Source of the DNA: a virus
Lineage: Duplodnaviria > Heunggongvirae > Uroviricota > Caudoviricetes
DNA length: 43,972 nucleotides
Virus record (IMG/VR): IMGVR_UViG_2681813201_000019
Strand: one strand, 5' to 3'
Below are positions 1 through 18,161 of the stretch, piece by piece. Within the stretch, counting starts at the first letter, position 1, and every line of letters begins with the position of its first letter. Both the position numbers and the translations under genes were made by a program. The notes under the pieces were generated by a model. That model did no database searches, was not told the origin of the DNA, and worked only from the letters and a program-made list of their open reading frames with translations.

Positions 1-879
1 ATAACAATCGACGATTGCTGGAAAGGCTGGGCCATACTCCTCCGGCAGAAGCAGAAAAAGCTTATTATGCTTCCATCGGAAACGATGATCTGGCAGCCTG
101 AGTTCACAGATAAAACACTCTCCAGGAAACCCGGGGCGGTTCAACTTCGCGACATCACGGCAGGAGAACTAGAACAATATGCTGCTGGCTTACGGGAAAA
201 ATTACGTCCGTCAACAGTAAACCGTATCCTCGCAATATTGTCCAAAATATGCTCTCTGGCAGTACGTGCTGGATGGATCACGCATTCCCCGATGTCACAT
301 GTCCGCTATCTGAAAGAAAATAACATTCGCTATCGCACACTATCAGCGACAGAAATCCCGCGCTTTATTGACGCGGCAACAGCGCTGCAAACACCGGCAG
401 CTGATTCTATATTGCTTGCTCTTTATACGGGGATGCGTATTGGTGAGGTATGTACCCTGAAATGGGAGTACTGGCACCTGGATATGCATCAACTCATACT
501 GCCTGATACAAAGTCCGGACACCCTTTCACCTGCCCACTTGCACCTCCAGCCATTGCAGTTGTCCAGTGCCAGCAGGACCTGATGCTCAGCAAAACTTAC
601 ATTTTTCCGCGACTAACCGACAATGCCCGCCCTCTGGCATATCCGCGTGCAACCTTTGCCCGTATTTGCCGGGATGCCGACATTGATAACCTGCGGATGC
701 ATGACCTGCGCCGTACCTTTGCCACCCGGGTACTACAGGCGACCGGGGATATTGCAATCGCTTCCCATCTGCTAAATCACCATTCACTCACGGCGACCCG
801 TCGCTACGCTTTTCACAATGCAGCGACATCACACGCAGTGGTTTCTCAGGTCATTGAAAGTTATGACACGAAAAAATGA
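1..879 (+). CDS. Tyrosine recombinase/integrase, catalytic C-terminal domain (5'-partial; reading frame is open to base 1)
   Basis: Frame 1 is open from position 1; catalytic motifs MHDLRRTFATR and LLNHHSLTATRRYA (R..HxxR..Y) are typical of phage-integrase-family tyrosine recombinases. Confidence 0.8.
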   Translation: MTIDDCWKGWAILLRQKQKKLIMLPSETMIWQPEFTDKTLSRKPGAVQLRDITAGELEQYAAGLREKLRPSTVNRILAILSKICSLAVRAGWITHSPMSHVRYLKENNIRYRTLSATEIPRFIDAATALQTPAADSILLALYTGMRIGEVCTLKWEYWHLDMHQLILPDTKSGHPFTCPLAPPAIAVVQCQQDLMLSKTYIFPRLTDNARPLAYPRATFARICRDADIDNLRMHDLRRTFATRVLQATGDIAIASHLLNHHSLTATRRYAFHNAATSHAVVSQVIESYDTKK

Positions 880-1076
880 ACCAATGATCTGTGATTCGTG
901 AAAGCAGTTCGCAGAAAGATTTAATCTTTCTGCATCCACGGTTGCGTCAGATATTTCTCGCAATCCCGGAAAACTCCCGCCCTTCATCAGAATTGGGCGG
1001 GCTATACGATTCTCTCTTGACGATATTGTTGATTGGGAAAATGCACATCGTCAAAACAAACTTAAAGGTGATATAA

Positions 1077-1715
1077 ATGGTTACTAAGAACACGGAAAAT
1101 AACGCTAATAATGCACTGAACATTCTTCCCGAATCAGCAAGCACAGCTGTAGACAACGATGAAAAATATCTGTCCTTTGCATTAGTTCTCGCTATCACGA
1201 TTATGGGCAACTTAGTAAAGCTCATCGGCACAGATGGCTTCATACTTTATACCTACACCCTGCAGGACACGGCTACTGCTCGTGCTGTTTTTAATGAATT
1301 AGCCAGGCGTCTCAAAAATTTCAATCGTCAGGAGGAGGTCTACACCACCGATTCCCTCACCTTTCGAATGAAATACATTTACGGTGTTACCCTGTTCGAA
1401 CATGATAGTAAATCTATCCTTAACCTTTTTGATAAGAAGGGTTATCCAGTATTGAGTGAATCAGGAGAACCCGGTTCTCTTGATGATATGTATCTTGACA
1501 TTCAAGCCCGATTACATGGCGGCTACGCCTCAAAAAAGTTTCTTCATTTACATGAACATTGTCTGTTATCTGCACACGTTACCCCGTCTGTGGAAAAGAC
1601 GCAACGTGGTATCCTGATTAAAGCAGGCAGGAAACTCGTTTCCTTTATCTATGCAGATAATGAATCTCGCAAAAATGATATTTTCAAAGCTGTAGTAGAC
1701 GTCATTAAATCCTGA
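1077..1715 (+). CDS. Hypothetical protein (212 aa)
   Basis: Intact ORF between the recombinase and the polymerase, followed by a hairpin plus T-run; no motif recognised. Confidence 0.45.
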   Translation: MVTKNTENNANNALNILPESASTAVDNDEKYLSFALVLAITIMGNLVKLIGTDGFILYTYTLQDTATARAVFNELARRLKNFNRQEEVYTTDSLTFRMKYIYGVTLFEHDSKSILNLFDKKGYPVLSESGEPGSLDDMYLDIQARLHGGYASKKFLHLHEHCLLSAHVTPSVEKTQRGILIKAGRKLVSFIYADNESRKNDIFKAVVDVIKS

Positions 1716-1718
1716 TTC

Positions 1719-1755
1719 ATTATGCCGGGGGGGACGAACTCCCGGCATTTTTTCG
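1719..1755 (+). terminator. Putative rho-independent terminator
   Basis: GC-rich inverted repeat (tgccggg...cccggca) followed by a T-run, directly after the 1077..1715 stop. Confidence 0.45.
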
Positions 1756-1764
1756 GAGTTAACT

Positions 1765-4320
1765 ATGAGCAATAATTTGCAGGACATCCTCGCTGCCGCA
1801 TCGGGGTATCAGTCCGTGACTTCAGAGCCAGCGCTCAATCTTAAAAGACCTAAAACGCTTGATGATTATCCTGTGATACCACCTGCATCAAAAAAAGTAT
1901 CTGTTATTTCAAGTGACCTGACACTCCATATCGGTTTTGATACCGAATATGTTTTCAATCCTGAAACACAACAGAATGATATTCTGTCATATCAGAGTTA
2001 TGTTGTCTTACCCGATAATACAGGTATATCGAACATTATCTATCCACCTGACTCACAGAAAAAATCCCGGCTGTCTTTTAAGAACTTTCTCTGTCAAACG
2101 ATTACACCGCTTCTTGAAACGGGTGTGATTACAAAATGGCCCGGTATTATTAATATATATGCGCATTTCATTCGTGCGGATATCACCTCCTTTGCCAATT
2201 TCTGGTCAGACTACAAAATTCTTCTGAAAGGAATACGCGGTACTGTCAGCAGCTTCAAAAATCGTTACGGTATCGATTTTGATGAACAGCAGGAACGTCG
2301 CGTAAAGACTGAACAGATAATGTTTGACAAACGAACTTCCCCTCCGCGTTGCAGTAACGTAGCTTTCATCGATACACTGCTTATCACTCCCGGGGGTATG
2401 GGTCTGGCTGAATGTGGTGAATTACTGGGTCTTCCCAAACTGACCATTCCTGCACCTTATTCCATAACCAATATGCGTGAATATCTTCTGGGCGACAGAG
2501 CAGGGTTTGAAGCCTATGCTCTGCGGGATGCCGAGATTGCGGTTCGTTATGCTTTACAGGTTCGCAATTTTTGCGCCCGGGAGCTGATGATTGATCGTGT
2601 CCCCGCCACCATCGGGGCGATGGCAGTTTCACGGTTCACCAAAACACTTAAAGAAAACAATATGTCTCCTGAAGTCTGCCTTGGGACACACATTAAAACC
2701 CGTGAACTCTGGCTCACGGAGAAACAGGCATTCCGGACGATTAAAAACCCCGCCAGTGTTCCTTCAAGAGAGCTGTTTGAAACGTTCCCGATCAACTGTT
2801 ACCACGGCGGACGCAATGAGTGTTTTATGATGGGGGTTACACCGTCTGATCACTGGTATGACTACGATCTGGCTGGAGCGTATACCACCGGGCTATTAGA
2901 TATCCTCATACCCGATTACGGAAACATCCGCCTCAGTAAAAATCCGGACGATTACTGTGGGCATGTAATGGGATTTGCGTTTGTCACATTTCAGTTCCCG
3001 GAATCAGTTCCCTATCCCAGCCTGCCGGTTCGGACCGATCAATATGGGTTATTCTTTCCATTAAGTGGCGAATCATGGGCAACGGCACCTGAAATCGAAC
3101 TTGCTCTGTCGCTCGGGGCAGAGATGACGATCCATAATGGGATCATCGTCCCCTGGATCTGTGACACCTCCCCACATAACAGCGAATCAACATCGGTGTT
3201 TCTTCCCTTTGTTCAACAGGTCCGTGAGAACCGTAATCGCCATATTAAAGGTTCTCTGGAGGAGAAATTCTGGAAAGAAATTGGCAACTCGCTTTATGGC
3301 AAACTTGCTCAGGGCCTTCGCGCCAAAACCGCCTTTGATACTGCCCGTGGATTAAACAGATCCCTCCCACCATCATCGGTTACTCAGCCATTCTTTGCTG
3401 CGCATGTGACGGGATTTATCCGCGCCGTTGTCGGGGAACTCATGAATGCTTTGCCTTCTGATTCATCGGTTGTCAGCGTCACAACCGATGGCTTTTTGAC
3501 AAATTGCCCACTTAACAAGATAAACATGAGCGGTCCACTGTCTTCCCGCTTCCAGTCGCTGTGCGATATTGTTGATCCGGGTTCATCAATGTTGACATGT
3601 AAGCATGAGGTCAGCCAGCTTATCGCCATGAAAACCCGGGGGCAGTTAACCTATAGAGCTATTCAGGGAAAACCTGTTGTTCATGCCAGGGCTGGCGTCA
3701 AACCTCCTGCCGATATTCCACGCAGTGACTATAACGACTATATGGTAGATCTTTACCTTAATCGTTTACCCGGTCAGACGTTATCCCGAAGTACGTTGAT
3801 ATCAACGCGTGAGATGTGGCTGTCGGAAAGCGATCTGGTATCCCGGGAACAGGATATCCGTCTTAATCTGGAATTCGATTTCAAACGCCAGCCCGTACAG
3901 CCCGCCATGAATGAAGGGCATTTACTGATGTCTTCCCGCCCATGGGATAATATGGAAGAGGCTCTGCAGCAACGCTCTCTTTTCGACGACTGGCGGCAAA
4001 CGCATACACTGAAGACCCTGGCTGACTGGGATGACTGGTGTGATTTTCTCTATTGCCGGACGGTGTTTTCTGATATGAAACTAAAAGTCGGAAGCAAACG
4101 TAGTGATGATATTTTAGTCAGACTATTTCTCCGGGCGCTGACTCAGTGCCAATGGGGGCTTATGCTGAAAGATAAAAAAAGTTATTCCTGTAAAGAGGTT
4201 GCTGAATGGCTGACGTCAGAAGGCTATTCAGTAACATGTCAAAAAGCACCTGCTGGATCTCCCGGGCCCGAAGGTCGCAGTAACGTATCTTCCCCAGACG
4301 AGGTTCAATGTATTGCGTGA
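1765..4320 (+). CDS. Family-B DNA polymerase, piPolB-like (primer-independent PolB of pipolins)
   Basis: 851 aa; Exo I-like HIGFDTEY, motif A-like YDYDLAGAY, motif B KEIGNSLYGKLAQ (Kx3NSxYG), motif C-like VSVTTDGF, and KTRG in AMKTRGQ; lies beside a recombinase and a UDG-like gene at a tRNA-Leu att site. Confidence 0.8.
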   Translation: MSNNLQDILAAASGYQSVTSEPALNLKRPKTLDDYPVIPPASKKVSVISSDLTLHIGFDTEYVFNPETQQNDILSYQSYVVLPDNTGISNIIYPPDSQKKSRLSFKNFLCQTITPLLETGVITKWPGIINIYAHFIRADITSFANFWSDYKILLKGIRGTVSSFKNRYGIDFDEQQERRVKTEQIMFDKRTSPPRCSNVAFIDTLLITPGGMGLAECGELLGLPKLTIPAPYSITNMREYLLGDRAGFEAYALRDAEIAVRYALQVRNFCARELMIDRVPATIGAMAVSRFTKTLKENNMSPEVCLGTHIKTRELWLTEKQAFRTIKNPASVPSRELFETFPINCYHGGRNECFMMGVTPSDHWYDYDLAGAYTTGLLDILIPDYGNIRLSKNPDDYCGHVMGFAFVTFQFPESVPYPSLPVRTDQYGLFFPLSGESWATAPEIELALSLGAEMTIHNGIIVPWICDTSPHNSESTSVFLPFVQQVRENRNRHIKGSLEEKFWKEIGNSLYGKLAQGLRAKTAFDTARGLNRSLPPSSVTQPFFAAHVTGFIRAVVGELMNALPSDSSVVSVTTDGFLTNCPLNKINMSGPLSSRFQSLCDIVDPGSSMLTCKHEVSQLIAMKTRGQLTYRAIQGKPVVHARAGVKPPADIPRSDYNDYMVDLYLNRLPGQTLSRSTLISTREMWLSESDLVSREQDIRLNLEFDFKRQPVQPAMNEGHLLMSSRPWDNMEEALQQRSLFDDWRQTHTLKTLADWDDWCDFLYCRTVFSDMKLKVGSKRSDDILVRLFLRALTQCQWGLMLKDKKSYSCKEVAEWLTSEGYSVTCQKAPAGSPGPEGRSNVSSPDEVQCIA

Positions 4321-4738
4321 AACGCTGAACATCCTTATCCCAGGACTTTTTATGGCGTTTGATGAACGGAACATAGGTCTGGTGAAAAAACTCACTAAGT
4401 GTTGGCATCGCACGATAATTATCGCGTTCTGCTTTAGGGTCATTTCCCAGTGCAATCGCCTCCTTGTGACGACGAGCTATCTGACGGGCTGTCCCCACAT
4501 CGATTTCAGGGAATCTGCCAATACTGATACTTTTTTTGGTACCGTGGAATGTGTAGCGCAGGAGGAAACGTTTGTTACCCGTTCGACCTGAGAGACATTT
4601 GAGGCCTATGACCTCGGTATCTGATACCTCAAGCTCTGTAGATCGGGTATCTGTGTTTGCCGGAAGGGCTTTGATGGATGAATTGGTGAATCGGAAGGAT
4701 TTTTGCATATTTATCCTCATGTATCTGATTGATATCAT
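4160..4738 (-). pseudogene. P4-type integrase N-terminal fragment (arm-binding and N-terminal domains only, catalytic domain missing)
   Basis: N-terminal region resembles the P4-like integrase arm-binding/SAM-like domain (LLRYTFHGTKKSISIGRFPEIDVGTARQIARRHKEAIALGNDP... FTQYIEPRLGKIRYCDLRAREIQQVLFDML); sequence then degenerates and the ORF runs into the convergent 3' end of the polymerase gene; no R..HxxR..Y domain. Confidence 0.55.
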
Positions 4739-4788
4739 GAAAATAATATATATCTGAAGGTGTTTTTATTACGGGGCAGGATTGAAGA

Positions 4789-5529
4789 ATGGAAAAGCTA
4801 TTAGACGCGTACAAACGGATATTGCAGGAAGTTAACGCCCAGTCATTTAACCTGAATGAGGATAAATACTCAGGCGTCTTTTTACCCGTGCCGTTTGAAG
4901 AATACTGGCATTCACCGATAAAAATCATGCTGGTTGGACGTGAAACCGCAGGCTGGAATACGCTGAATGGTAAGAATACGATATCACGGGTGTTGGGACT
5001 TATACCTGACGTCACCATCGGGCAAGTGGTTGAAGAAGCTGTAGATCGTTACAGGAAACATCTTCCGGTACAAAATTATGGCACCGCCAACCTCAAATCA
5101 CGTAGCCGCTTCACGCAATATCATTTCAGGCTGGCCCGGGAGCTTAATATTCTTCCCCAGGCAATCGTGTATGCCAATCTACTGGCGTGGGATTACGACG
5201 GACTGACCCCTCTCAATCGCCCTCAAAATGAAGTGCAGGAAGTCATATTAGCCTCGCTGAAGCTACTGGCGGTACAAATTAAACACCTTGAGCCTGATTT
5301 CATCATCTTTGCATCTGGAGCCCGGAGAACAGACTACATCATAAAACAGGTGCTTACTGAGCTAGGCGGCTATGAGACTTCTTCAGTCATTCCGGGGAAG
5401 CTGTGGGAGTTCAAAACAGGTAATACAATCTGTTTCAGAATTGCCCATCCAAGGGCTATGCGCGGACACCAGAAGTACAGAGATGAGGTGATTGCACGAA
5501 TTAAGCAACTTTGTACTCAGGGTGGCTAG
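4789..5529 (+). CDS. Uracil-DNA-glycosylase-like protein (family-4-like)
   Basis: N-terminal IMLVGRETAGW resembles the UDG GE(A/G)PG motif region and C-terminal FRIAHPRAMRGH resembles the HPS motif region; assignment by motif resemblance only. Confidence 0.45.
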   Translation: MEKLLDAYKRILQEVNAQSFNLNEDKYSGVFLPVPFEEYWHSPIKIMLVGRETAGWNTLNGKNTISRVLGLIPDVTIGQVVEEAVDRYRKHLPVQNYGTANLKSRSRFTQYHFRLARELNILPQAIVYANLLAWDYDGLTPLNRPQNEVQEVILASLKLLAVQIKHLEPDFIIFASGARRTDYIIKQVLTELGGYETSSVIPGKLWEFKTGNTICFRIAHPRAMRGHQKYRDEVIARIKQLCTQGG

Positions 5530-5702
5530 AGCATTACAGCTTGCTCAGCAGGGCCCCTTCCCGGAAGAGTACCGGAAAACAGGCAAAGCAACCTGGTTCT
5601 CTATGCTGGAGGCGACACGTTCGATTCGGCATTGCCAGGCTGGAGATTGCAGCTCATTGCACCCCGTGAGCACAGGATATGCACAGGACATGAATTTCAG
5701 GC

Positions 5703-5826
5703 ACAAAAAAACCACCCGGAGGTGGTTTCACGACACTGCTTATTGCTTTGATTTTATTCTTATCTTTCCCATGGTACCCGGAGCGGGACTTGAACCCGCA
5801 CAGCGCGAACGCCGAGGGATTTTAAA
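5703..5826. repeat. att direct repeat, left copy (3' 55 nt of leuZ plus 69 bp of downstream terminator region; not a complete tRNA)
   Basis: 124 bp identical, apart from 1 mismatch, to 42902..43025; identity ends exactly at the tRNA anticodon-loop position. Confidence 0.85.
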
Positions 5827-5932
5827 AACTATCAACCACCATTTATAAATCATAACCTTATGATTTTATTAACTTTGAAAATGGCTCTATACAACGCCAT
5901 TTGAATCTATTGTCACTTTTTATCGCCACTTT

Positions 5933-6934
5933 TTACCCTCTATTGTCAAAAGGGTTCAATTCAACAGCAGCCTCTAAATGACCTGGAGCAAAATGCGCAT
6001 AACGCATAGTCATTTTTATATCGCTATGCCCCAGTATTTTTTGCAACACAAGAATATTTCCGCCCCGCATCATAAAATGACTGGCAAACGTGTGACGTAG
6101 CACATGAGTTAATTGCCCATCAGGAAGCTCGATCTTCGCTCTCTTAATTGCAGCGTCAAAAGCCTCATAACATGGTGAAAATAGCGCTCCTCGTTTTTTG
6201 GGAAGCATAGCCTGCAATTGAGGTGAAATCGGTACAGTGCGGTTCTTCTTTCCTTTAGTTTTAACAAATGTGATTCGACCGGGCAGTACTTGAGATTGCT
6301 TTAATCCTTCTGCTTCACTCCACCGAGCACCAGTCGCAAGCCCAATACGGACAACAACCCCCAAATCTTTATTCCGTGACTCATCACACGCAATCAGAAG
6401 GCGTTCAATCTCATCTACATACAGAAACGCCAGTTCCTTTTCTTCCTCACGAAACTTGCGAATACCAGTCAGGGGGTTTTCACCAGACCACTCCCCAAGG
6501 CGCTTCAGTTCGGCAAAAACAGCATGTAGATATGACTGCTCGCGATTAACGGTTGCTTCACTAAGTTTTTTCTTCCCCTTGGGATTCCATTCTCCTGATA
6601 GCCTTCTTTCCCGATAAGTGGCAAACATATTTTTGTCAAACTGAGAAGCAAATGGATCTCCCAGCCTGGAACAAATCGCCTCAAGTTTGACTTTGCGCTC
6701 TGCACCAGAGGACAAGGTTTTACCGTACATCTCAAACCAACGAGCAATCAACTCAGAAAGACGAGGACCAGAACCATCTTGAAACTCGTCTCCAACTCTA
6801 CTATTCATTAAACGGCGCTCATAAGAGAGCGCCTCACTTTTTGTCGCAAACTGTTTACGAATGCGTTTTCCCGATGCCCCGTAGGGATAACATTCGCAAA
6901 GCCATTTACCTGATGGAATCTTACGAACCGACAT
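5933..6934 (-). CDS. int: Phage integrase (P2 Int family tyrosine recombinase)
   Basis: 333 aa; TGARWSEAEGLK, ITFVKTKGKKNRTVPIS and THVLRHTFASHFMMRGGNILVLQKILGHSDIKMTMRYAHF closely resemble P2 Int; lies about 100 bp from the att repeat. Confidence 0.9.
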   Translation of the reverse strand: MSVRKIPSGKWLCECYPYGASGKRIRKQFATKSEALSYERRLMNSRVGDEFQDGSGPRLSELIARWFEMYGKTLSSGAERKVKLEAICSRLGDPFASQFDKNMFATYRERRLSGEWNPKGKKKLSEATVNREQSYLHAVFAELKRLGEWSGENPLTGIRKFREEEKELAFLYVDEIERLLIACDESRNKDLGVVVRIGLATGARWSEAEGLKQSQVLPGRITFVKTKGKKNRTVPISPQLQAMLPKKRGALFSPCYEAFDAAIKRAKIELPDGQLTHVLRHTFASHFMMRGGNILVLQKILGHSDIKMTMRYAHFAPGHLEAAVELNPFDNRG

Positions 6935-6939
6935 TTTAG

Positions 6940-7287
6940 TTACTTATCACATAAATCAAATGCAGCCTTAGTGACATCCCCTAGGCTCTTTTTTAACCCT
7001 GGGGCGGCATCATTATCTAGCCAAAATGGATTATTGTTATCTAACGGTAACGCACCAAATGTTTTACCTTTTATTCGAGCCAAACCTGTAAGTGCATATA
7101 ACTTATTATCGTCAAAATTCATCACATAAGGATTACCATCAAGACACTGTAATTGAACCTCATCAGTATTAAATGGCCATACCCCATTGAAACTCTCACG
7201 TTCAATAGTTTTAAAAGGCATTGCGACGGCGGAAAAAGAAAACATAGATAAAAAAGTAACTAATAGTTGAACCTTTTTTACTTTCAT
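6940..7287 (-). CDS. Small secreted protein of unknown function (predicted signal peptide)
   Basis: N-terminus MKVKKVQLLVTFLSMFSFSAVA is signal-peptide-like; sits in the int to repressor cargo position. Confidence 0.5.
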   Translation of the reverse strand: MKVKKVQLLVTFLSMFSFSAVAMPFKTIERESFNGVWPFNTDEVQLQCLDGNPYVMNFDDNKLYALTGLARIKGKTFGALPLDNNNPFWLDNDAAPGLKKSLGDVTKAAFDLCDK

Positions 7288-7316
7288 ATCATTACCTCAA
7301 TTTAGCTCAAGTAAGA

Positions 7317-7967
7317 TTACAAATTAAAAAACGCCCTAGAAATGACACCGCCTACCAAAACCCCTACGCAGATAAAGAATATTATTTCTTTTGGATAAAG
7401 TCGGATTAATTCTGAAGCACGAAGTCGGACTTCTGGTAAGGTCGAACTCTCTGTGTGGCTTGATGCCGATTGTTGCTCTAACCACGACAATGCAGACTGT
7501 AACTGAGAACGAGTAAGATCGTTTAAACGTCCTGTACCGAAATTGATATGGCAATACCGCAGAAGTTTTTGTCGAAGTCCACAGTCTTCACTGTTACGTA
7601 GTAATAAACTTACAAGAGCCTTACAGGCATCATGATCTTTACATCGCTCAAGCATTGCATGCAGAAAACTCTCCGCTGTTTTATATTGATTTACTGTCAT
7701 ATCATCAATACCAGCTACACCAATCTCCGCATGTACTTTTTGCCAAATAATAAACGCTTCAGTATTGCTAGCTTCTGCAATAGCAGCAACCAAGCTATTC
7801 AGCTCCTTACGCTGAGCCTTAAGCAAAGGGCGATCGTCATCATCATTATTCGAAGGGATTGCGATATTGACGGTATGAGAACCATCATATCGCTCTATCT
7901 GAATATTCTTTTCGTGAAAATCACGCCCAGCAACGCGATTGTTTGAACCGTTTGAGTTGACGGCCAT
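7317..7967 (-). CDS. Hypothetical membrane-anchored protein (216 aa)
   Basis: C-terminal hydrophobic segment IIFFICVGVLVGGVI; N-terminal motif NNRVAGRDF resembles the C-terminal tail of the adjacent repressor. Confidence 0.45.
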   Translation of the reverse strand: MAVNSNGSNNRVAGRDFHEKNIQIERYDGSHTVNIAIPSNNDDDDRPLLKAQRKELNSLVAAIAEASNTEAFIIWQKVHAEIGVAGIDDMTVNQYKTAESFLHAMLERCKDHDACKALVSLLLRNSEDCGLRQKLLRYCHINFGTGRLNDLTRSQLQSALSWLEQQSASSHTESSTLPEVRLRASELIRLYPKEIIFFICVGVLVGGVISRAFFNL

Positions 7968-7982
7968 GTCACCTCCCTACTA

Positions 7983-8387
7983 TCACCTACCCTTAGTTTC
8001 GTTATAGTCACGACCAGCGATACGGTTATTACCACCAGAAATATTTAACTCACGTCCTGATAGCTGAGTTTCCTTTTCACTGATCGCACCTTTTAAAGCC
8101 CCAATCACCGCGTTTTTCACATCTAACGAAGCTGCTCGAAAGCGAGTAATCAACTCCTGCTCATCATCGTTATAAGTTTCAGGTGAGTGAATTCCCAACA
8201 CAACATACTGAACATCAAGGCCAAAACGAGACAGCGCTGCCAAATACGCAGCATCAGGAAAGCTATCTCCTTTCTCATATCTAAGCTGAGTTAGCTTTTT
8301 GACTCCACCAATGTCGCTCATGGCAACTTGACTAAGTCCCAATCTTTCCCTTTCCTCACGCAACCGCTGACCAATATCATTTTTCAT
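7983..8387 (-). CDS. Immunity repressor, XRE-family HTH (C/CI-like)
   Basis: N-terminal HTH (QRLREERERLGLSQVAMSDIGGVKKLTQLRYEKGDSFP); divergent from the early operon, the usual P2/186 immunity layout. Confidence 0.75.
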   Translation of the reverse strand: MKNDIGQRLREERERLGLSQVAMSDIGGVKKLTQLRYEKGDSFPDAAYLAALSRFGLDVQYVVLGIHSPETYNDDEQELITRFRAASLDVKNAVIGALKGAISEKETQLSGRELNISGGNNRIAGRDYNETKGR

Positions 8388-8462
8388 ACAAAAACCTTGA
8401 CAGGTATCTTTTTTGATACCAAAATGATTTCACGAGCTATTAGATGATCACAATATACCACT
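8388..8462. promoter_or_regulatory. Divergent early promoter/operator region between the repressor and the cox-like gene
   Basis: TTGACA -35-like hexamer followed by the palindrome GGTATC-tttttt-GATACC, plus a second TGATCA palindrome; position matches the Pe/Pc switch region of P2-like phages. Confidence 0.5.
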
Positions 8463-8669
8463 ATGAAACAAGTTCTTCACGATACCAGATCACGCATTCC
8501 GCGTAACACCGCCACAGGTCCAAGACTGGCACTTCGGCTGTCCCTCGAGGAGCGAGCCGTCATTGATGAAATGGCAGCTAAAGAACAACGCTCATCCTCT
8601 AACATGGCGCGCATGATCTTCCTTCGCGGCCTAGAGCTAACCCAGAAAGAACAAAACAAATCTTCCTGA
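8463..8669 (+). CDS. Small early regulatory protein (possible ribbon-helix-helix)
   Basis: 68 aa; first gene of the rightward early operon; RLALRLSLEERAVIDEMAAKE is RHH-like. Confidence 0.4.
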   Translation: MKQVLHDTRSRIPRNTATGPRLALRLSLEERAVIDEMAAKEQRSSSNMARMIFLRGLELTQKEQNKSS

Positions 8670-8685
8670 TCAGGAGGCTAGTGGG

Positions 8686-8889
8686 ATGTCAGGTATAACC
8701 ATCAATATCAATGTGAATGCCCCCTATGTATCCCTGCAGAAATATGCAGAGATAACAGGTATCCCTCTTAATACATGCAAAAAGATGTTGGCTGACGGTC
8801 GAATTATTATCCGCCCCAAACGCGCCAAAATGGAAAAGCCTGAAGTAAACCTTGTGGCGATGTTAAAAGACGCTTTGGCTAACAGCTAA
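8686..8889 (+). CDS. Cox/excisionase-like HTH protein
   Basis: 67 aa; YVSLQKYAEITGIPLNTCKKMLADGRIII resembles the Cox/AlpA HTH; position matches cox/apl. Confidence 0.5.
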   Translation: MSGITININVNAPYVSLQKYAEITGIPLNTCKKMLADGRIIIRPKRAKMEKPEVNLVAMLKDALANS

Positions 8890-8910
8890 AACAATGAACA
8901 GAGCACCATC

Positions 8911-9261
8911 ATGAAAAAAAACGCTAATAATCCATACTCCAAATTTCGTAATGGCGTAGAACGCCATGTACACCACGTCGCTACCAGTGCATCACGTAGT
9001 AACAGTCGCTATAACCTGAACGAAACACACGCAACACCGGATGGCCACGCTGTAAAACAAATCGGCGAGCATACCTGGCTGATTGAGAAAGCTGGAATCG
9101 TGGTCCACAAATGCCCACGCAATCCGTTTACCGGAAACCGCATTTTTGCATTGAGCTGCGGAGACAATCACTTCGGACAGGATTTCACATTATACGAAGC
9201 ACTTCGCACGGTTGATCGTCTGCTTCGCGGGCAAAGTTTTATTAAACAGGCTGATTTATAA
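8911..9261 (+). CDS. Hypothetical early protein
   Basis: 116-aa ORF in the early operon. Confidence 0.4.
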   Translation: MKKNANNPYSKFRNGVERHVHHVATSASRSNSRYNLNETHATPDGHAVKQIGEHTWLIEKAGIVVHKCPRNPFTGNRIFALSCGDNHFGQDFTLYEALRTVDRLLRGQSFIKQADL

Positions 9262-9271
9262 CAGGTGCTTT

Positions 9272-9586
9272 ATGACCAAAGAGCATGCACAAGGTGTATT
9301 TATCCGTTTTATTGATTTTCGCGGTGAACTGTTATTACGCGCATCCGCTATTGATGGAGTGGCTCCGGCGGGTAAAAACGGAGCCGACGAAGCCACTTAC
9401 GTTTATCTGAACGGCACGCGACTGCTTGTGGAACTTCCGTACCAGACCGTACGAGAAATCATTAGTGAAGCTGAAAAGGCACGCCTGGCTAATGGCGTGA
9501 ACCCTATATCGAAATTATTTGTATGGATTCAGAAACTGAAATTCAGAAAGCAGATTAAAGGGCGTTGCGATGGGCAAAGAATATAA
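9272..9586 (+). CDS. Hypothetical early protein (start taken at internal ATG, MTKEHAQGV...)
   Basis: ORF 9212..9586; the internal Met avoids overlap with the preceding gene. Confidence 0.4.
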   Translation: MTKEHAQGVFIRFIDFRGELLLRASAIDGVAPAGKNGADEATYVYLNGTRLLVELPYQTVREIISEAEKARLANGVNPISKLFVWIQKLKFRKQIKGRCDGQRI

Positions 9587-9812
9587 AACTCTCATTAACA
9601 AAGCACTTGAGCGTTTTTATTTTCGCTTAAGTGCATCAGGCGCTCATGCTGAACGAGCAGCCCGTGACTCATTGACCAGGGCAATCCGGAGTCTGTATGA
9701 CGTGGCTTTTTACGCTGATGATCTGGATGCACTTAACGAACTTTCCGAGCTGATCTGTGCCGCAGAATGCGGGGAACATATTGAACCGTATAAGCTGGGG
9801 AATATTGCATGA
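9570..9812 (+). CDS. Hypothetical early protein
   Basis: 80-aa ORF, overlaps its neighbours by a few bases (operon-like). Confidence 0.4.
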   Translation: MGKEYKTLINKALERFYFRLSASGAHAERAARDSLTRAIRSLYDVAFYADDLDALNELSELICAAECGEHIEPYKLGNIA

Positions 9813-9922
9813 GTATATTTATCTCATGGCTTGTTCTGATTATTTCGGTGGCCTGCGCCATTGGGATTATGCGAATTATTCATTCAGTAAAAAAGATTGA
9901 ACGCTTTTTCACTGGTGAATAA
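9809..9922 (+). CDS. Possible small hydrophobic membrane peptide (37 aa)
   Basis: ATGA start/stop overlap with the previous gene; predicted MSIFISWLVLIISVACAIGIMRIIHSVKKIERFFTGE; too short for the ORF track, read from the text. Confidence 0.3.
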   Translation: MSIFISWLVLIISVACAIGIMRIIHSVKKIERFFTGE

Positions 9923-10015
9923 CGATACAAATAAAGCATCAAATTAAATAAGAAAACGTGAAAACCATCCGTATTAACGGAGGTATTCGCACACGCAAAT
10001 AACGGAGATACAAAA

Positions 10016-10426
10016 ATGCACGCAAAAGAAGAAGGTATCATCAGAGCACTGAAAGAAATTTCAAAGACAGAAAACGAAGTAGCGAAAAAAGCCGTGGCAA
10101 ATGCACATATGGACGTCGCAACCCACACACTGATAGTCGCAAGAGTCACGGCAGAAGCAGCCGAAATTATCGCAAAACAGGATGCTGAACTGGCGGTTCT
10201 CAGAACACAACCAGTCACCGGACTGGATTTGTCTAACACCGGACGCCTTATTTACACAATTGGCTCGGAGCTACAGCGATACACCATTATCGCCGGATTA
10301 CAGGATAAATACCTGATCACTCCTCACCCCATAAGGGAATCAGAAATTCTGACAAATCTCCGCCTGATAGAACGCTCTCAAGTTGTATTCATTGATGACG
10401 CGCAATGTGCCGTATTTAACGCATAG
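10016..10426 (+). CDS. Hypothetical early protein
   Basis: 136-aa ORF. Confidence 0.45.
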   Translation: MHAKEEGIIRALKEISKTENEVAKKAVANAHMDVATHTLIVARVTAEAAEIIAKQDAELAVLRTQPVTGLDLSNTGRLIYTIGSELQRYTIIAGLQDKYLITPHPIRESEILTNLRLIERSQVVFIDDAQCAVFNA

Positions 10427-10449
10427 GGTTACTGGACAAAGGGGGCGCA

Positions 10450-10653
10450 ATGGCAATTAAGCATTTTCCCGTCGTTCGCTTTACCTCCAGAGGGCGCGAA
10501 TACGAGGTCGACGAACGCCTGATTACCACTATCGACAAACATCGTTCGGAAAAGGATGCACACCACATCTACCTCACTGACGGCACTTACTTCTGCGCCA
10601 CCAACGTGGCGCGGGTGAATCTTATCCGACAGGTACAGGAGCCACGCAGATGA
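10450..10653 (+). CDS. Hypothetical early protein
   Basis: 67-aa ORF. Confidence 0.4.
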   Translation: MAIKHFPVVRFTSRGREYEVDERLITTIDKHRSEKDAHHIYLTDGTYFCATNVARVNLIRQVQEPRR

Positions 10654-10916
10654 CCATTCTGGACTACATCGCTACTCATCCGGGGTGTAGCGGCGGAGAG
10701 ATCGCCGCAGCACTGAATACCCCAACCACAGCCATTAATGCTGAGTTACGCCGACTTTGGCGCGGCGGCTTAGTCATCAGAACAAACCGCAGCACAGGTG
10801 GTCGCGCTCGCAAAACAGGAGGCCAGGCTTCTTACCACGTAAACCCGATGCTGTTCGGGTGTAGTAATCCACTTACTCACATGTTTAACCAGCTACTGAA
10901 GGAAGCCAGAGCATGA
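10650..10916 (+). CDS. Small putative DNA-binding protein (winged-helix-like)
   Basis: 88 aa; ILDYIATHPGCSGGEIAAALNTPTTAINAELRRLWRGGLV resembles a winged HTH. Confidence 0.4.
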   Translation: MTILDYIATHPGCSGGEIAAALNTPTTAINAELRRLWRGGLVIRTNRSTGGRARKTGGQASYHVNPMLFGCSNPLTHMFNQLLKEARA

Positions 10917-11212
10917 GCACCATCAACCACCAGAAGCTACGCGAACTGGCATTTGCCCTGCAACGAATGGCAACGCCTCAAAAATTACTGGCATTTCGCG
11001 CAATGCTCTCGCCGTCTGCTGTGCTGGCACTGCTGGATCAGCTGGAGCACGCCAGAACCACTGCTCCAGCCATTCGCCTCACGCTCCATCATGAAATCGC
11101 TGATTTCTGCGCAACGCTGGGGGCACCTGGCGAACCGGAAACGCCGGAAGCAATGCAGCAAGAGCTGCTGCAACGCATCGATAACGTTTTTGATTTTTTT
11201 CTGAACCAGTAA
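10913..11212 (+). CDS. Hypothetical early protein
   Basis: 99-aa ORF, translationally coupled to the previous gene. Confidence 0.4.
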   Translation: MSTINHQKLRELAFALQRMATPQKLLAFRAMLSPSAVLALLDQLEHARTTAPAIRLTLHHEIADFCATLGAPGEPETPEAMQQELLQRIDNVFDFFLNQ

Positions 11213-11534
11213 GAAACCAGAACATGCACACACAAAAAAACCGCTTGCCATGCCTCAATCGGTCAGGTTACATTTCCGCTGCACCTCATAAAACGGGCGC
11301 CGGGATTCTCAACCCGATACAGAGCAAAGCGCATAACCGCGCAAGCGGTTTTTTTGTGCGTACTGTATTGCCACGTCTTTTTCGCGTCAGAATTATGGCG
11401 GGGCGTACGGGGCCGACTTCGGTCGGGCCGGATTCTTTGCTCTCCGGTGTTGAGAACCCTGTACGTCTCGCCACCCCGAGATTCTCAACTCTGGATGGTG
11501 AGTTATTTCTATCACCGAGCAAAGAGGCCACACC

Positions 11535-11765
11535 ATGGCAGACCGCAAACAGCACCGCGCTATCGCGGAGCGTCGTCACATCCAGACTGAAATCAACCGC
11601 AGACTTTCCCGCGCATCACGCGTCGCGCAAATCATGCACATCAATATGCTGCATGAGCGCAGCCACGCACTATCAAACATTTATTCCGCCTCTGTTTTCA
11701 GCTATCTGGCGGATGATCTGCACGAGCTTCAACAGCTCATCCAGCAGCAAAACAAACTCCATTAA
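11535..11765 (+). CDS. Hypothetical small basic protein
   Basis: 76-aa ORF with an AGAGG Shine-Dalgarno upstream; the overlapping 205-aa frame (11224..11841) looks non-coding. Confidence 0.35.
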   Translation: MADRKQHRAIAERRHIQTEINRRLSRASRVAQIMHINMLHERSHALSNIYSASVFSYLADDLHELQQLIQQQNKLH

Positions 11766-11837
11766 TTCCTGTTCCGGGCCTTTCCTGCACCTTGCGGCGG
11801 GAGGCCTTCGCACATCTGTAACAAGAGGATTGCCGCA

Positions 11838-12203
11838 ATGATTCTCGCCAACGACTTTCTTGAATACCTGCTCAACACAGAGCGTGATCTTGCCGCTCGC
11901 GTGCGTGATCGTTATGACATGTACCTGAAATCCCTGCCTGTACCGCAGCTCGCTGACGGAAAGATTGTTATTGATGGTCGCTACATGATTGACAGCCACG
12001 AGGGAAATTACAGGCTTTCCCGCATTGAAGGTGGCACCCCGTCCGTTATTGGCATTTACCAGCGCCCATCCTCTGCAATCGTCGATGTGATTGCCGACAG
12101 CATCCGCATCACACATCGCCATGCCGACACAGAAGACACCGTGCTGGAAATTCAGCGGCTGGCTACAGTCTGCCGCGACACCCTGAATGGCATGACGAAG
12201 TAA
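11838..12203 (+). CDS. Hypothetical protein upstream of the replication gene
   Basis: 121-aa ORF. Confidence 0.45.
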   Translation: MILANDFLEYLLNTERDLAARVRDRYDMYLKSLPVPQLADGKIVIDGRYMIDSHEGNYRLSRIEGGTPSVIGIYQRPSSAIVDVIADSIRITHRHADTEDTVLEIQRLATVCRDTLNGMTK

Positions 12204-12209
12204 ATCACT

Positions 12210-15032
12210 ATGACGGCAGAGTACATCAGGGACTGGCAACAACCGCGCCACGCAGTGGGGCGTGAAGGAACGGGGATCCCCGCTCCTGAATCCGCGCTTT
12301 CCTCCTGGCTGGATGCCTACCGGGTAGAGAACGAGCGCCGCCAGGAAATGGCTGATGCGGCGTTCTCCGCCACGCCGCTGGGCAACCTGATTAATAAAAG
12401 CCTGGACGCACAGGAAAAACAGGACAAAACCATCACACTGGCAGGAGACGCCAGAAAACAGGCACGCGGCGCAGTGGATGAAGCCATGACCTCGCTGCGC
12501 CTGCTGCCGTCCTATCTGCGCGATCCGCTTATTCGCCACCTCTCCTTCCTGCGCAAAAAACAGGAAGCCGATCGCCGGAAAGGCAAAAAGAGCTGGCAGG
12601 CGGAACGCTATGCACGCGGAACCCTGCGCAAAATATTCGAACGTCTGGACCGCACCGATCACCGCTGGCTGACACCGGGTTATCGCTCCCTTGCCGGACG
12701 CGAACGCCTGGACGATTTGCTTTACCTGCCGCAGCTCAACAAACACCAGATACAGACGCTGGCCACCATGACGGCGGCGATGTTCAGCAGCACCTTCGAA
12801 AAACTCTGCGATGGCTTTGGCGCGACTGATGGCGAACTGACCATGGATGTAACGCTGAAGGCGTATCAGATGCTGGCCCGCATGGCGTTACACCTGCACG
12901 CCATGCCTCCACATTATGACGCACTGACAACAGACAAAGACCGGAGGAACGAACCGGACACAGAGCTGCTGCCGGGCGCAATCCTTCGCCTGACCTGTGC
13001 GGAATGGTGGAAACGCAAACTGTGGCTGTTACGTTGCGAGTGGAGAGAAGAACAACTCCGCGCCGCCTGTCTGGTTTCCAGAAAAACATCGCCCTATCTG
13101 AGCCAGGACGCGTTAAGCGAGTTTCGCGCACAGCGCGAGAAAACACGCGATTTCCTGAAAAGTTTCATGCTGGAAAACGAAGACGGGTTCACGATTGATC
13201 TCGAGACAGTGTATTACGCGGGAGTAAGTAACCCGGTTCACCGTAAGGCAGAAATGATGGCCACCATGAAGGGACTGGAACTTCTGGCCGAAGCCCGTGG
13301 CGACAGAGCGGTGTTTCTGACTGTCACCTGCCCGTCAAAATACCACGCAACAACGGAGAACGGTCATCCGAACCCCAAATGGAACGGGGCCACCATGCGC
13401 GACTCCAGCGATTACCTGGTTAACACGTTTTTTGCGGCGGTCCGCAAAAAACTGAACCGCGACGGCCTGCGCTGGTATGGCATCCGCACGGTGGAGCCTC
13501 ACCATGACGGCACCGTGCACTGGCATATGATGGTCTTTGCTCATCCGGAAGAAATCGACAGCATCGTGGCCATCACCCGCGATATTGCCATTCAGGAAGA
13601 CCGCCACGAGCTGGGCAATGATATTACTCCGCGCTTTAAAGTGGAGTATGTCGACGGCTCAAAAGGCACACCAACCAGCTATATCGCGACCTACATCGGG
13701 AAAAACCTGGACAGCCGCGCCGTGGATGGCATCGACCCGAAAACGGGCAAACCACGCGTTGACCACGAAACCGGAAAATCAATGGCCGAGAGCGTGGAGC
13801 GCGCCATCGGTTGGGCACGCCTTCACCGGGTCCGCCAGTTCCAGTTCTTTGGCATCCCCTCCCGTCAGGTGTGGCGTGAACTCCGCCGCCTTGCCAGCCA
13901 GATGGCACGCAACCCGGAAGGCCCGCAACGGCTGAAGGATGACGCAATGGATGCGGTACTCGCTGCCGCTGATGCCGGATGTTTTGCCACCTACATAGAG
14001 AAACAGGGCGGCGTACTTGTTCCACGCAAAGACTACCTGATTCGCACCGCCTACGACCTCGCCGATGAGCTGAACGATTACGGCGAACAGAGTGTACAGA
14101 TTTACGGGATCTGGTCACCACTCATCGGGGAATCCTCCCGTGTGTGCACGCACCCGGATAACTGGAAGCTGGTAAGACGTAAACCGGAACAGGAAGGCAG
14201 CGCCCACGAAAATGGTTTTGACCTTCAGGGCGGCCCTGCCGCCCCTTGGACTCGTGGCAATAACTGTCCCCGTGTACAGGAAACGGACAACAACGGGACA
14301 GAACAGCCGGAAGAACGGCCAGCACCGTGGCCGCAGCTCCCTGACGGCGTTGAAGTGAACGAATGGATGCGCTCACTGAAACGGCACGAACGCCGGGCGC
14401 TGATGCGTTCGCTTCGTGACAAACAGGCAAAAAACAGCAGTGATGAAATGCAGAGCTGGACACAGAGCCGCAAACAGCAGCGGCCTTTGCCTGATAACCA
14501 CGAATTACTCGCTAAAGAATGGCGGGAGTCTGCTGAATCTCTCGGCCTGCATATCGGTGAACAACAGATGCAGCACCTGTTACGGGGCGGCAGTCTGTAC
14601 GTTGACGGCAGCATCATTGCACCGCAGGGGTTTGAAATTGTACGCAAACCGGATACCCGCCCGGACAGCCGAATCACGCAGCTCTGGCAGCGCCTGAGCC
14701 GTAATCACGGCGTAAGCAGCACGGAGATCCGCCATAACCCGGTCGCCAGCTATCTGGCGCAACTGGGGGCATCAGACCCTGAAGCCGCCGCACGCCTGGC
14801 ATCCACACTTCAGCAGGACCAGAACACCATGAAAACACCCGTTACCGTGCTTTCTGACATGCTGCGCGCCATCCGCGACACAGAGCACGCACAGAGAATC
14901 AGTGAAACCACTGAACGCGCCCGCCGCAAAGCAGACCTGCTGCGGGGTGGCCTGACCATTGGAAACAAAAAACAGACAGAAACGGGATTCACAAATCCCG
15001 TAAATGAGCAAAAAACGCGCCGCGATATATGA
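12210..15032 (+). CDS. A: Replication initiation endonuclease, gpA-like (rolling-circle HUH initiator)
   Basis: 940 aa; HUH motif HWHMMVF and tyrosine pair in TSYIATYIGKN typical of the P2 A / phiX174 A superfamily; expected position after the early genes. Confidence 0.85.
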   Translation: MTAEYIRDWQQPRHAVGREGTGIPAPESALSSWLDAYRVENERRQEMADAAFSATPLGNLINKSLDAQEKQDKTITLAGDARKQARGAVDEAMTSLRLLPSYLRDPLIRHLSFLRKKQEADRRKGKKSWQAERYARGTLRKIFERLDRTDHRWLTPGYRSLAGRERLDDLLYLPQLNKHQIQTLATMTAAMFSSTFEKLCDGFGATDGELTMDVTLKAYQMLARMALHLHAMPPHYDALTTDKDRRNEPDTELLPGAILRLTCAEWWKRKLWLLRCEWREEQLRAACLVSRKTSPYLSQDALSEFRAQREKTRDFLKSFMLENEDGFTIDLETVYYAGVSNPVHRKAEMMATMKGLELLAEARGDRAVFLTVTCPSKYHATTENGHPNPKWNGATMRDSSDYLVNTFFAAVRKKLNRDGLRWYGIRTVEPHHDGTVHWHMMVFAHPEEIDSIVAITRDIAIQEDRHELGNDITPRFKVEYVDGSKGTPTSYIATYIGKNLDSRAVDGIDPKTGKPRVDHETGKSMAESVERAIGWARLHRVRQFQFFGIPSRQVWRELRRLASQMARNPEGPQRLKDDAMDAVLAAADAGCFATYIEKQGGVLVPRKDYLIRTAYDLADELNDYGEQSVQIYGIWSPLIGESSRVCTHPDNWKLVRRKPEQEGSAHENGFDLQGGPAAPWTRGNNCPRVQETDNNGTEQPEERPAPWPQLPDGVEVNEWMRSLKRHERRALMRSLRDKQAKNSSDEMQSWTQSRKQQRPLPDNHELLAKEWRESAESLGLHIGEQQMQHLLRGGSLYVDGSIIAPQGFEIVRKPDTRPDSRITQLWQRLSRNHGVSSTEIRHNPVASYLAQLGASDPEAAARLASTLQQDQNTMKTPVTVLSDMLRAIRDTEHAQRISETTERARRKADLLRGGLTIGNKKQTETGFTNPVNEQKTRRDI

Positions 15033-15108
15033 AGCGCGCATAAAACAGGCAAAAACGGGATTTCAGAATCCCGTAAACGATTAATTAATCAACATAAGGA
15101 AAAGCGAC
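14975..15108. promoter_or_regulatory. Two 20-bp palindromes ACGGGATT-N4-AATCCCGT about 70 bp apart, immediately upstream of the parM-like gene (candidate parC/operator)
   Basis: Perfect 8-bp inverted arms with 4-bp spacers at about 14981..15000 and 15053..15072; no T-run, so not typical intrinsic terminators. Confidence 0.4.
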
Positions 15109-16068: not shown

Positions 16069-16072
16069 ACCA

Positions 16073-16384: not shown

Positions 16385-16447
16385 CACAACATCAGGGCGC
16401 ATCCGCCCTGATGACTTTAACCCGGGAACATAAACAAGGGGGACACA

Positions 16448-17091: not shown

Positions 17092-17093
17092 GA

Positions 17094-17585: not shown

Positions 17586-17586
17586 T

Positions 17587-17850: not shown

Positions 17851-17860
17851 GGACTAACAC

Positions 17861-18121: not shown

Positions 18122-18130
18122 AAATGAGCC

Positions 18131-18160: not shown

Positions 18161-18161
18161 A

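Follow-up and report, generated by a model that had tools for sequence, protein, structure and literature searches.

The window (the whole 43,972-nt stretch of DNA that was analysed) is 100% identical over 5.9 kb to Escherichia coli O145:NM strain FWSEC0002 (CP031919.1/NZ_CP031919.1). Coordinates outside the window refer to the source-genome locus of FWSEC0002 (L001) and to comparison loci (L002-L006), of which L002 is from strain PapRG-06-5 and L003 is the intact-pipolin reference. The following features were located.

1..141, + strand: IS3-family element, 3' end only, with IS629-like inverted repeats; its right inverted repeat reaches to 141, and the complete IS occupies L001 18834-20141
142..879, + strand: 5'-truncated IntP2/XerC-like tyrosine recombinase, lacking about 131 first codons of a 376-378-aa gene
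902..1087, + strand: HTH_17 excisionase-like remnant; its first 5 codons, with the start, and the intergenic region before them fell to a 143-bp deletion at 901/902
1077..1715, + strand: 212-aa conserved pipolin orphan, directly upstream of piPolB, as in L002-L006
1722..1748, + strand: hairpin and T-run resembling a terminator, in the gap between the orphan and the start of piPolB (consensus scan only)
1765..4320, + strand: piPolB gene, 851 aa; codons 1-824 native (to nt 4236), codons 825-851 (4237-4317) a new tail
4235, no strand: junction of a 5,819-bp deletion (L003 12472-18290 missing relative to intact pipolins)
4235..4708, - strand: IntSXT/P4-type integrase remnant; N-terminal 158 of 405 aa with the Arm DNA-binding domain and no catalytic domain
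4789..5529, + strand: 246-aa UDG-superfamily protein (divergent, family-4-like), by fold comparison
5695..5831 (124-nt core 5703-5826), no strand: middle att copy, a duplicate of the leuZ 3' half and terminator; pipolin right end and prophage distal att
5827..42901, no strand: P2-like (myovirus) prophage in tandem at the pipolin att; integrase at 5933-6934 (- strand)
42971-43057, - strand: intact leuZ tRNA-Leu (TAA), found by ARAGORN, carrying the tRNA-proximal att copy 42902-43025
Beyond leuZ: cysT, glyW and pgsA (annotation)

att repeats and element boundaries

Direct repeats of 124 nt at 5703-5826 and 42902-43025 share 99% identity, and their length and identity are far beyond chance expectation. 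The repeat spans the 3' 55 nt of tRNA-Leu(TAA) and 69 nt downstream, including the terminator hairpin. In the source genome, a further copy lies beside yecA (L001 6751-6887); it is 97% identical over 137 nt to window 5695-5831. All three att copies terminate at one identical base in the anticodon loop, and the middle copy has one mismatch. With its left att 13.2 kb outside the window start, the pipolin measures about 19 kb, of which the window holds only the right 5.8 kb. The polymerase gene is enclosed by these terminal repeats (L001 6751-6887 and window 5695-5831), and the element sits between yecA and leuZ with the leuZ 3' half as att, which is the Leu-tRNA integration of E. coli pipolins. 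The original prediction of an element bounded by a repeat of the tRNA-Leu 3' end was borne out, and the left-hand repeat whose absence was to count against it is present. Its element end at 5702 needs correction; the right end is 5826 because the att copy belongs to the element.

Primer-independent DNA polymerase

Pipolins and their primer-independent family B DNA polymerase (piPolB) were first described in 2017, with SxTTDG and KH-X8-KTRG as defining motifs of the polymerase (Redrejo-Rodriguez et al., 2017, PMC5695915). Both motifs occur in the 851-aa protein, as S571-V-T-T-D575-G, in which Thr takes the place of the first catalytic Asp, and as K613-H614, eight residues and K623-T-R625-G in the place of KxY. 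The reading frame and the motifs of the original prediction were found where it had placed them: DTEY at 59-62 (Exo I), K504x3 followed by NSLYGK at 508-513 (motif B), TTDG at 573-576 within SVTTDG (PolC), and KTRG at 623-626 preceded by K613-H614. The Exo I DxE residues (D59, E61) and the PolA catalytic Asp (D368) are also in place, and D368, K504, T574, D575, and K613 are invariant across 48 homologues. The gene retains all catalytic residues in an open frame. In the characterised E. coli enzyme, mutations were made at residues with exactly the numbers of D59, E61, D368, K613, H614, K623, and R625, and the mutants include K613A, H614A, K623A, and R625A. This numbering and the tight clustering of E. 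coli piPolBs suggest that the gene encodes the same enzyme (KDU42669, from E. coli 3-373-03_S1_C2). Over residues 1-824, the protein agrees with the main 866-aa E. coli piPolB cluster at 819/824 positions (99% identity); this cluster sits in pipolin-syntenic loci. Past residue 824 the sequence is unrelated, and family matches to the 851-aa protein end at about residue 824-827. Of 5426 complete E. coli genomes, 296 have the gene, all with at least 95% DNA identity, so it is not especially rare.

The weak matches to PHROG DNA-polymerase families and to Pfam DNA_pol_B_2 (E=0.0018, below the gathering score) would fit an ordinary family B polymerase that just happens to sit close to a tRNA, be it chromosomal Pol II, a casposon PolB, or a protein-primed phage PolB. 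Against this, the piPolB-specific SxTTDG and KH-X8-KTRG are present, the closest homologues (99% identity) lie within pipolin synteny, and neither Pfam DNA_pol_B nor any NCBIfam model matches the protein. The YxDTDS and KxY motifs of Pol II and casposon polymerases differ from those found here, and neither cas1 nor a terminal-protein gene was found in the locus. The tests of motif and synteny refute an ordinary polymerase, which we consider close to impossible, and the original prediction of a pipolin-like element with a piPolB-type polymerase stands.

Searches of PDB chains by sequence found no polymerase for piPolB, with the single sequence or with a 48-sequence profile, and fold comparison alone succeeded. 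The AlphaFold model of the 866-aa form (pLDDT 87), which is 99% identical to the window protein over 1-824, has a predicted protein-primed-PolB-like fold. Its top nine PDB matches in Foldseek are phi29 DNA polymerase (E 1e-16 to 1e-13), which makes protein-primed PolB, not Pol II, the nearest solved fold. The best match (E=1e-16, TM 0.65 normalised to phi29) has exonuclease and palm motifs in common with piPolB. However, identity is 12%, and piPolB differs in the Thr at the first PolC Asp, KTRG instead of KxY, additional sequence at the N-terminus (about 50 residues, modelled with low confidence), and about 140 further residues at the C-terminus; the pipolin has no terminal protein gene. From the literature, piPolB would start DNA synthesis without a primer and presumably replicate the excised circle or aid damage tolerance. 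In vivo replication of pipolins by piPolB is not demonstrated in the available text of the cited pipolin papers. Upstream of the gene, the putative terminator has a 10-bp stem with 7 GC pairs, followed by TTTTTCGG. A promoter scan gave fewer sigma-70-like sites than in shuffles, a result that carries no information on promoters.

Orphan and UDG-like proteins

The 212-aa orphan has no match in Pfam, NCBIfam, or PHROG. The 246-aa protein has no match in Pfam, NCBIfam, or PDB at the sequence level, and its family profile found nothing relevant among PDB sequences. Its AlphaFold model (pLDDT 89.2) has the predicted alpha/beta fold of the uracil-DNA glycosylase (UDG) superfamily, with Foldseek matches to 4zby (family-4 UDG, E=1.3e-5), 1ui0, UdgX, and SMUG1 (E 1e-5 to 1e-4, probability 1.0; TM 0.45-0.59 on target length). 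Among 32 homologues, G50-R-E-T-A-G-W-N57 is invariant except for near-invariant A54, H220-P-R222 is invariant, and the family has a single invariant Cys. The sequence signature of family-4 UDGs includes the motifs GE(A/G)PG and HP(S/A), together with 4Fe-4S cysteines. GRETAG and HPR resemble the two motifs, but the single invariant Cys and the absence of a Pfam UDG match leave a family-4 assignment by sequence tentative.

Lesions in the recombination module

Intact pipolins among the comparison loci have the order IntP2, excisionase, orphan, piPolB, WYL, DUF2787, IntSXT, UDG-like gene, and leuZ. Based on the literature, an IntSXT-type tyrosine integrase of an intact element would recombine the att of about 130 nt, which runs from within the tRNA anticodon loop to the far side of the terminator, and an IntP2-type recombinase and an excisionase would be encoded beside piPolB. 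In the window, the polymerase does lie between a tyrosine recombinase and a UDG-like gene, as originally predicted, but the recombinase frame is 5'-truncated and fused to an IS, and the DNA separating these genes also holds the 212-aa frame and, in antisense orientation, an integrase remnant.

Three lesions were mapped to the base. The first is the IS629-like element with an associated deletion of about 3.8 kb, which removed the N-terminal third of the IntP2 recombinase and part of hsdM, a pseudogene in the cargo module. The IS has terminal repeats TGAACCGCCCCGGGAATCCTGGAGA and TCTCCAGGAAACCCGGGGCGGTTCA, and its RefSeq IS3 family transposase ends at window 101. It is flanked by TGG on one side and ACT on the other, and thus lacks a target-site duplication. 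Similarity to pipolins that lack the IS begins at window 142, as does the alignment to the intact 376-aa IntP2 gene of PapRG-06-5 (L002 19608-20738). The 270-aa recombinase frame (67-879) begins inside IS sequence and has a Pfam Phage_integrase match at 91-251 (E=2e-22). Its catalytic domain is complete, and the IS could drive its expression.

The second lesion is in the excisionase gene, where window 901/902 corresponds to L003 8997/9141 in blastn alignment. The intact gene encodes 66 aa (L003 9126-9326, PF12728; L002 20889-21089), and the strain annotation has no gene at the remnant. The IntP2 and excisionase genes beside piPolB, part of the gammaproteobacterial pipolin core, are thus represented by truncated remnants only.

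Through the third lesion, piPolB runs from codon 824 straight into the interior of the IntSXT integrase gene. By blastn, window 902-4235 aligns with L003 9141-12471 and window 4235-5826 with L003 18291-19881. The genes lost are a 108-aa ORF, a DeoR/WYL regulator, a DUF726-like gene, DUF2787, two to three orphans, and the catalytic half of the integrase; the core WYL and DUF2787 genes lie inside the deleted L003 12472-18290. Instead of the intact core IntSXT near att, residues 1-158 of 405 are left. This remnant agrees at 157 of 158 residues with the start of the intact 405-aa integrase (L003 17547-18764), matches Pfam Arm-DNA-bind_3 (E=8e-15), and is annotated by RefSeq as a pseudogene without its C-terminus.

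Implicit in the original prediction was an intact pipolin that mobilises and replicates itself, with recombinase, piPolB, and UDG between functional att sites. The nearly perfect att repeats, the open piPolB frame with all catalytic residues, and the surviving recombinase catalytic domain agree with such an element. It is nevertheless very improbable, given an IntSXT of 158/405 aa lacking its catalytic domain, an IntP2 that lost about 131 N-terminal codons and is fused to the IS, the missing excisionase start, the deleted WYL and DUF2787 core genes, and the hsdM pseudogene. The literature also suggests that pipolins in tandem with prophages are inactivated (available text of PMC11551731). On this gene content, the FWSEC0002 copy is probably immobile. 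It could still be mobilised in trans, either by the integrase of the prophage, for which this att also serves, or by a recombinase encoded at another place in the genome.

The window segment is the right end of a pipolin, a mobile element with a primer-independent DNA polymerase, in E. coli O145. Our reading, to which we give a probability of about 0.93, is that window 1-5831 represents the right-hand core module of an E. coli pipolin of about 19 kb at leuZ that is decayed and probably immobile.

Adjacent prophage

Annotations of the P2-like prophage include portal, terminase, P2-family capsid, gpA-like replication endonuclease, ogr/Delta, tail sheath, and tail tube. Its integrase has Pfam Int_N and Phage_integrase domains. 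A close relationship between this integrase and a pipolin recombinase was considered as an explanation for the common att and rejected, as identity to either one is 25-26% over the catalytic domain. The prophage would have integrated later into leuZ regenerated at the pipolin att, giving three att copies and leaving the pipolin 37 kb from the tRNA. This order, pipolin first and prophage later, is suggested by the tRNA-proximal position of the prophage and by PapRG-06-5, which has the same deleted pipolin without the prophage. Tandem islands at tRNA sites (P4- or P2-like) are similar in that successive elements use one tRNA 3' half, leave one att copy per junction, and have the newest element beside the intact tRNA. 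Unlike in those islands, the identity segment here has an unusual length of 124 nt, with 69 nt beyond the tRNA, and the integrases of the two elements are about 25% identical.

Comparison with published pipolins

The element shares with E. coli tRNA-Leu pipolins (PMC5695915, PMC7385651) the species, the leuZ site, att-type direct repeats, type I restriction-modification cargo, a piPolB with identical numbering of the mutated catalytic residues, and a UDG-like gene beside attR. There is no difference in kind, and the locus is part of the 2020 data set, in which FWSEC0002 (CP031919.1) is named among eight strains with a pipolin, an adjacent myovirus prophage, and three att repeats (Flament-Simon et al., 2020, PMC7385651). 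A monophyletic pipolin subgroup marked by deletions between IntSXT and piPolB, by ISs close to IntP2, and often by a cointegrated prophage is described in the available text of Mateo-Caceres and Redrejo-Rodriguez (2024, PMC11551731), where the link between truncation and cointegration is called open. The window resembles this truncated Enterobacterales subgroup (Fig. 3B, pipolin 2, in the part of the paper available) in its IntSXT-piPolB deletion, IS beside IntP2, truncated tyrosine recombinases, and cointegrated prophage. That paper reports truncated recombinases, and the available part of its text has no mention of the polymerase C-terminus; the FWSEC0002 deletion also swaps the last 42 conserved piPolB residues.

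The locus itself is already published (PMC7385651, main text and supplement; PMC11551731) and is known, not new. A real and fairly unusual system was recognised from raw sequence alone, and the discovery value is small, as pipolins date from 2017, the E. coli survey with this strain and accession from 2020, and the truncated prophage-linked subgroup from 2024. The present analysis adds the base-level endpoints of the three lesions. This map makes the FWSEC0002 copy unsuitable as a model of a functional pipolin.

C-terminal truncation of piPolB

The piPolB protein differs from family-length members in its C-terminus. It lacks residues 825-866 of the 866-aa form (a 42-aa tail) and has in their place 27 unrelated residues, translated in antisense to the integrase remnant. 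These last 27 codons are not polymerase sequence, a point missed by the original prediction. The lost tail is conserved and gap-free (KNAxR, VPxT, FP) in 46 diverse homologues with 28-48% identity, and the 866-aa model predicts tail helices at 825-830 and 846-858 with good confidence. A helix-turn-helix cut by the deletion (SY..ELAEWLT..GY.TT..DVKNAKR; helices 809-818 and 825-830) is no more than a guess from secondary structure, as none of eight C-terminal segments matched a helix-turn-helix family in Pfam.

Loss of a tail that is so conserved and forms predicted helices may have made the polymerase a dead relic, inactivated or destabilised by the loss and by the 27 antisense-derived residues, with a frame that is open only because the deletion is recent. 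Within the deleted clade, the window and PapRG-06-5 differ by seven nonsynonymous and four synonymous substitutions (dN/dS about 0.5), compared with six and 14 (about 0.13) between the window and the intact type, which points the same way; these counts, 11 substitutions within the clade, are far too small for a test. Insertion sequences also interrupt piPolB in other genomes (H26, H28, H32). However, the exact 851-aa protein is on 97 contigs, the arrangement is shared by at least 30 complete genomes from different lineages, none with a broken frame, every catalytic motif is upstream of residue 626, and phi29 DNA polymerase aligns without the extra C-terminal region. On balance we doubt that the enzyme is dead, while regarding this as a real possibility.

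The deletion made a natural piPolB variant without the conserved 42-aa tail, and its frame is uninterrupted in no fewer than 30 complete genomes. A more speculative proposal, which we consider quite unlikely, is that the variant, provided it has kept its activity, gives the host an advantage such as damage tolerance, and that this explains the persistence of an element that can no longer move; or the P2-like phage integrase, with the same 124-nt att, could move the pipolin in trans. The tail-less 851-aa piPolB is a ready natural truncation for probing the role of the conserved C-terminal region.

Identity of the Polymerase

Pipolins are mobile elements carrying piPolB, a primer-independent family-B DNA polymerase, and the original prediction assigned window positions 1-5702 to such an element. 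The features concerned are the following.

67-879, upstream of the polymerase: tyrosine recombinase ORF, 270 aa (Pfam Phage_integrase, E=2e-22)
1077-1715, upstream of the polymerase: orphan ORF, 212 aa
1765-4320, plus strand: polymerase ORF, 851 aa (ORF listing)
4160-4738, antisense to the polymerase 3' end: ORF of 192 aa, sole domain Arm DNA-binding
4789-5529, downstream of the polymerase: UDG-like ORF, 246 aa
5827-42901: complete P2-like prophage, own integrase at 5933-6934
42971-43272, minus strand: glyW-cysT-leuZ cluster (ARAGORN)

The 851-aa family-B polymerase was confirmed in the ORF listing with its cited motifs, DTEY at residues 59-62, K504x3NSLYGK at 508-513, SVTTDG at 571-576, and K613-H614-X8-K623-T-R625-G. 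Two features define piPolBs: SxTTDG replaces YxDTDS, and KH-X8-KTRG replaces KxY (PMC5695915). Every residue altered in the E. coli piPolB mutants D59A/E61A, D368A, K613A, H614A, K623A, and R625A (PMC5695915) is present in the window protein with identical numbering. The protein matches the dominant 866-aa E. coli cluster (1387 members) at 819 of 824 residues, and an exhaustive HMMER search found 2073 relatives. In a 48-sequence alignment (members 29-48% identical to the window protein), D368, K504, T574, D575, and K613 show no variation and D59, E61, and R625 almost none. The Pfam DNA_pol_B_2 match was below threshold (E=0.0018) and a PDB sequence search returned no match; other PolBs are barely visible from piPolB by sequence methods. 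In the AlphaFold model of the intact 866-aa form (pLDDT 87.3), the best structural match is phi29 DNA polymerase (E=1.2e-16, TM 0.65 on phi29), and archaeal and eukaryotic PolBs rank next. This model-based ranking agrees with piPolB being a sister group of protein-primed PolBs.

The piPolB of strain PapRG-06-5 (locus L002) starts with GTG (L002 21768), and its window counterpart with ATG. A terminator-like hairpin (1722-1748, plus strand; 10-bp stem with seven GC pairs, then a T-run) lies directly after the 212-aa orphan gene and 17 nt ahead of the piPolB start codon, and could insulate or attenuate piPolB transcription.

Gene Neighborhood

Loci with the 866-aa form (L003-L006) run from type I R-M, an orphan, an IntP2-type recombinase (378 aa), an HTH_17 excisionase, and the 212-aa orphan to piPolB, and then through a small ORF, a DeoR/WYL regulator, DUF726-like and DUF2787 genes, and orphans to an IntSXT/P4-type integrase (405 aa, minus strand), the 246-aa gene, and leuZ. 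This order is the published gammaproteobacterial pipolin core; together with the identical numbering of the key residues and the 819/824 identity, it supports the pipolin reading. A family search with the 246-aa protein gave no match. The label "UDG-like" is supported at the level of predicted fold, because its model (pLDDT 89) matches family-4 UDG, UdgX, and SMUG1, and because among homologues HPR is invariant, as is GRETAGWN save for a near-invariant A54. The predicted placement of the polymerase between a tyrosine recombinase and a UDG-like gene therefore holds.

Boundaries of the Element

The repeat of the tRNA-Leu 3' end proved to be a 124-nt direct repeat (5703-5826 and 42902-43025; 99% identity), far beyond chance, made of the 55 nt at the 3' end of tRNA-Leu(TAA), anticodon loop onward, and 69 nt downstream with a terminator hairpin. 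Over its first 5.9 kb the window matches E. coli O145:NM FWSEC0002 (NZ_CP031919.1; locus L001) and other O145 genomes at 100% identity. Extension leftward in L001, as had been proposed, located another att copy adjoining yecA (L001 6751-6887; 97% identity over 137 nt with window 5695-5831), and the anticodon-loop end base is common to all three copies. These ends give the pipolin a length of about 19 kb (L001 6751-25831), of which only the right 5.8 kb falls in the window. Leftward from the window start are an IS3-family element, type I R-M with an hsdM pseudogene, and a cold-shock-domain gene, then a YecA-like gene, an M48 peptidase, a DUF262 gene, and chromosomal yecA. The DUF262 gene of this cargo module (L001 7231-18831) is GmrSD-like, and the 3' end of the pipolin's second YecA-family gene is 75% identical to chromosomal yecA over 81 nt.

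Decay of the Pipolin

The pipolin copy in the window is decayed, with three lesions mapped by blastn against the intact locus and pairwise alignment. The first is a 5,819-bp deletion joining L003 12471 to L003 18291 at window 4235, which removed the last 42 piPolB codons, WYL, DUF2787 and neighboring genes, and the integrase past residue 158; beyond it the polymerase frame reads antisense into the integrase remnant for a further 27 codons. The piPolB tail removed in this way is not junk: across 46 diverse homologues it has no gaps and shows conservation (KNAxR, VPxT, FP), and family alignments to the window polymerase end at residues 824-827; the predicted 866-aa model has tail helices at 825-830 and 846-858. 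The second lesion is an IS629-like element whose end lies at window 141; its two flanks differ (TGG vs ACT) and so form no target duplication. Relative to PapRG-06-5, about 3.8 kb is absent there (the hsdM 5' end, two genes, and about 131 recombinase codons), and the 270-aa recombinase ORF is an IS-recombinase hybrid. The third, a 143-bp deletion at 901/902, removed the excisionase start. The first lesion is not tied to the other events, since PapRG-06-5 carries it without the IS or the prophage.

Of 5426 complete E. coli genomes, 296 carry the piPolB gene (DNA identity at least 95%), always on the chromosome. Some 30 genomes share the deleted arrangement, and 97 contigs encode the exact 851-aa protein. 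Within the deleted clade, piPolB differs by seven nonsynonymous and four synonymous changes, compared with six and 14 against the intact type, which hints at relaxed constraint, the substitutions being too few for a test. In the complete genomes of ESDR8, STEC346, and Z1323CEC0006 (survey entries H26, H28, and H32), IS2 or IS3-family elements interrupt piPolB, suggesting that its loss is under way in some lineages.

All E. coli pipolins lie at a Leu-tRNA gene flanked by att repeats, and eight strains including FWSEC0002 (CP031919.1 in the supplement) have three repeats, caused by a myovirus prophage at the shared site (PMC7385651). PMC11551731 describes a monophyletic Enterobacterales subgroup in which IntSXT-piPolB deletions and truncated recombinases occur, ISs lie close to IntP2, and prophages are often cointegrated, a link it terms an open question. 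Because that strain and the truncated subgroup are already described, the window pipolin is a correct rediscovery of a system known down to the strain; as a degraded example it is of low interest.

The Tandem Prophage

The prophage most likely arrived later than the pipolin, given its tRNA-proximal position. Its integrase shares just 25-26% identity with each of the two pipolin recombinases, so any trans-action would rest on shared att use and not on kinship.

The prophage also encodes a ParM-type segregation ATPase and a partition/stability gene (15109-16384, plus strand) adjoining a gpA-like replication endonuclease. Such genes are unusual in an integrating P2-type phage and are suggestive of a plasmid-like maintenance option. 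Three tandem 132-nt units (30351-30746; 100/84/66% identity) lie within a tail-fiber gene and are in-frame 44-codon repeats of the receptor-binding protein. In the tail-fiber region (~31-35 kb, GC ~0.44), a serine recombinase ("recombinase family protein"; 33846-34445, plus strand) adjoins duplicated, opposed tail-fiber assembly genes and a partial tail-fiber gene, an arrangement resembling an invertible host-range switch of the Cin/Gin type. Toward its tRNA-proximal end, the prophage has a Hok/Gef-family toxin gene (41819-41959, plus strand) beside ogr/Delta.
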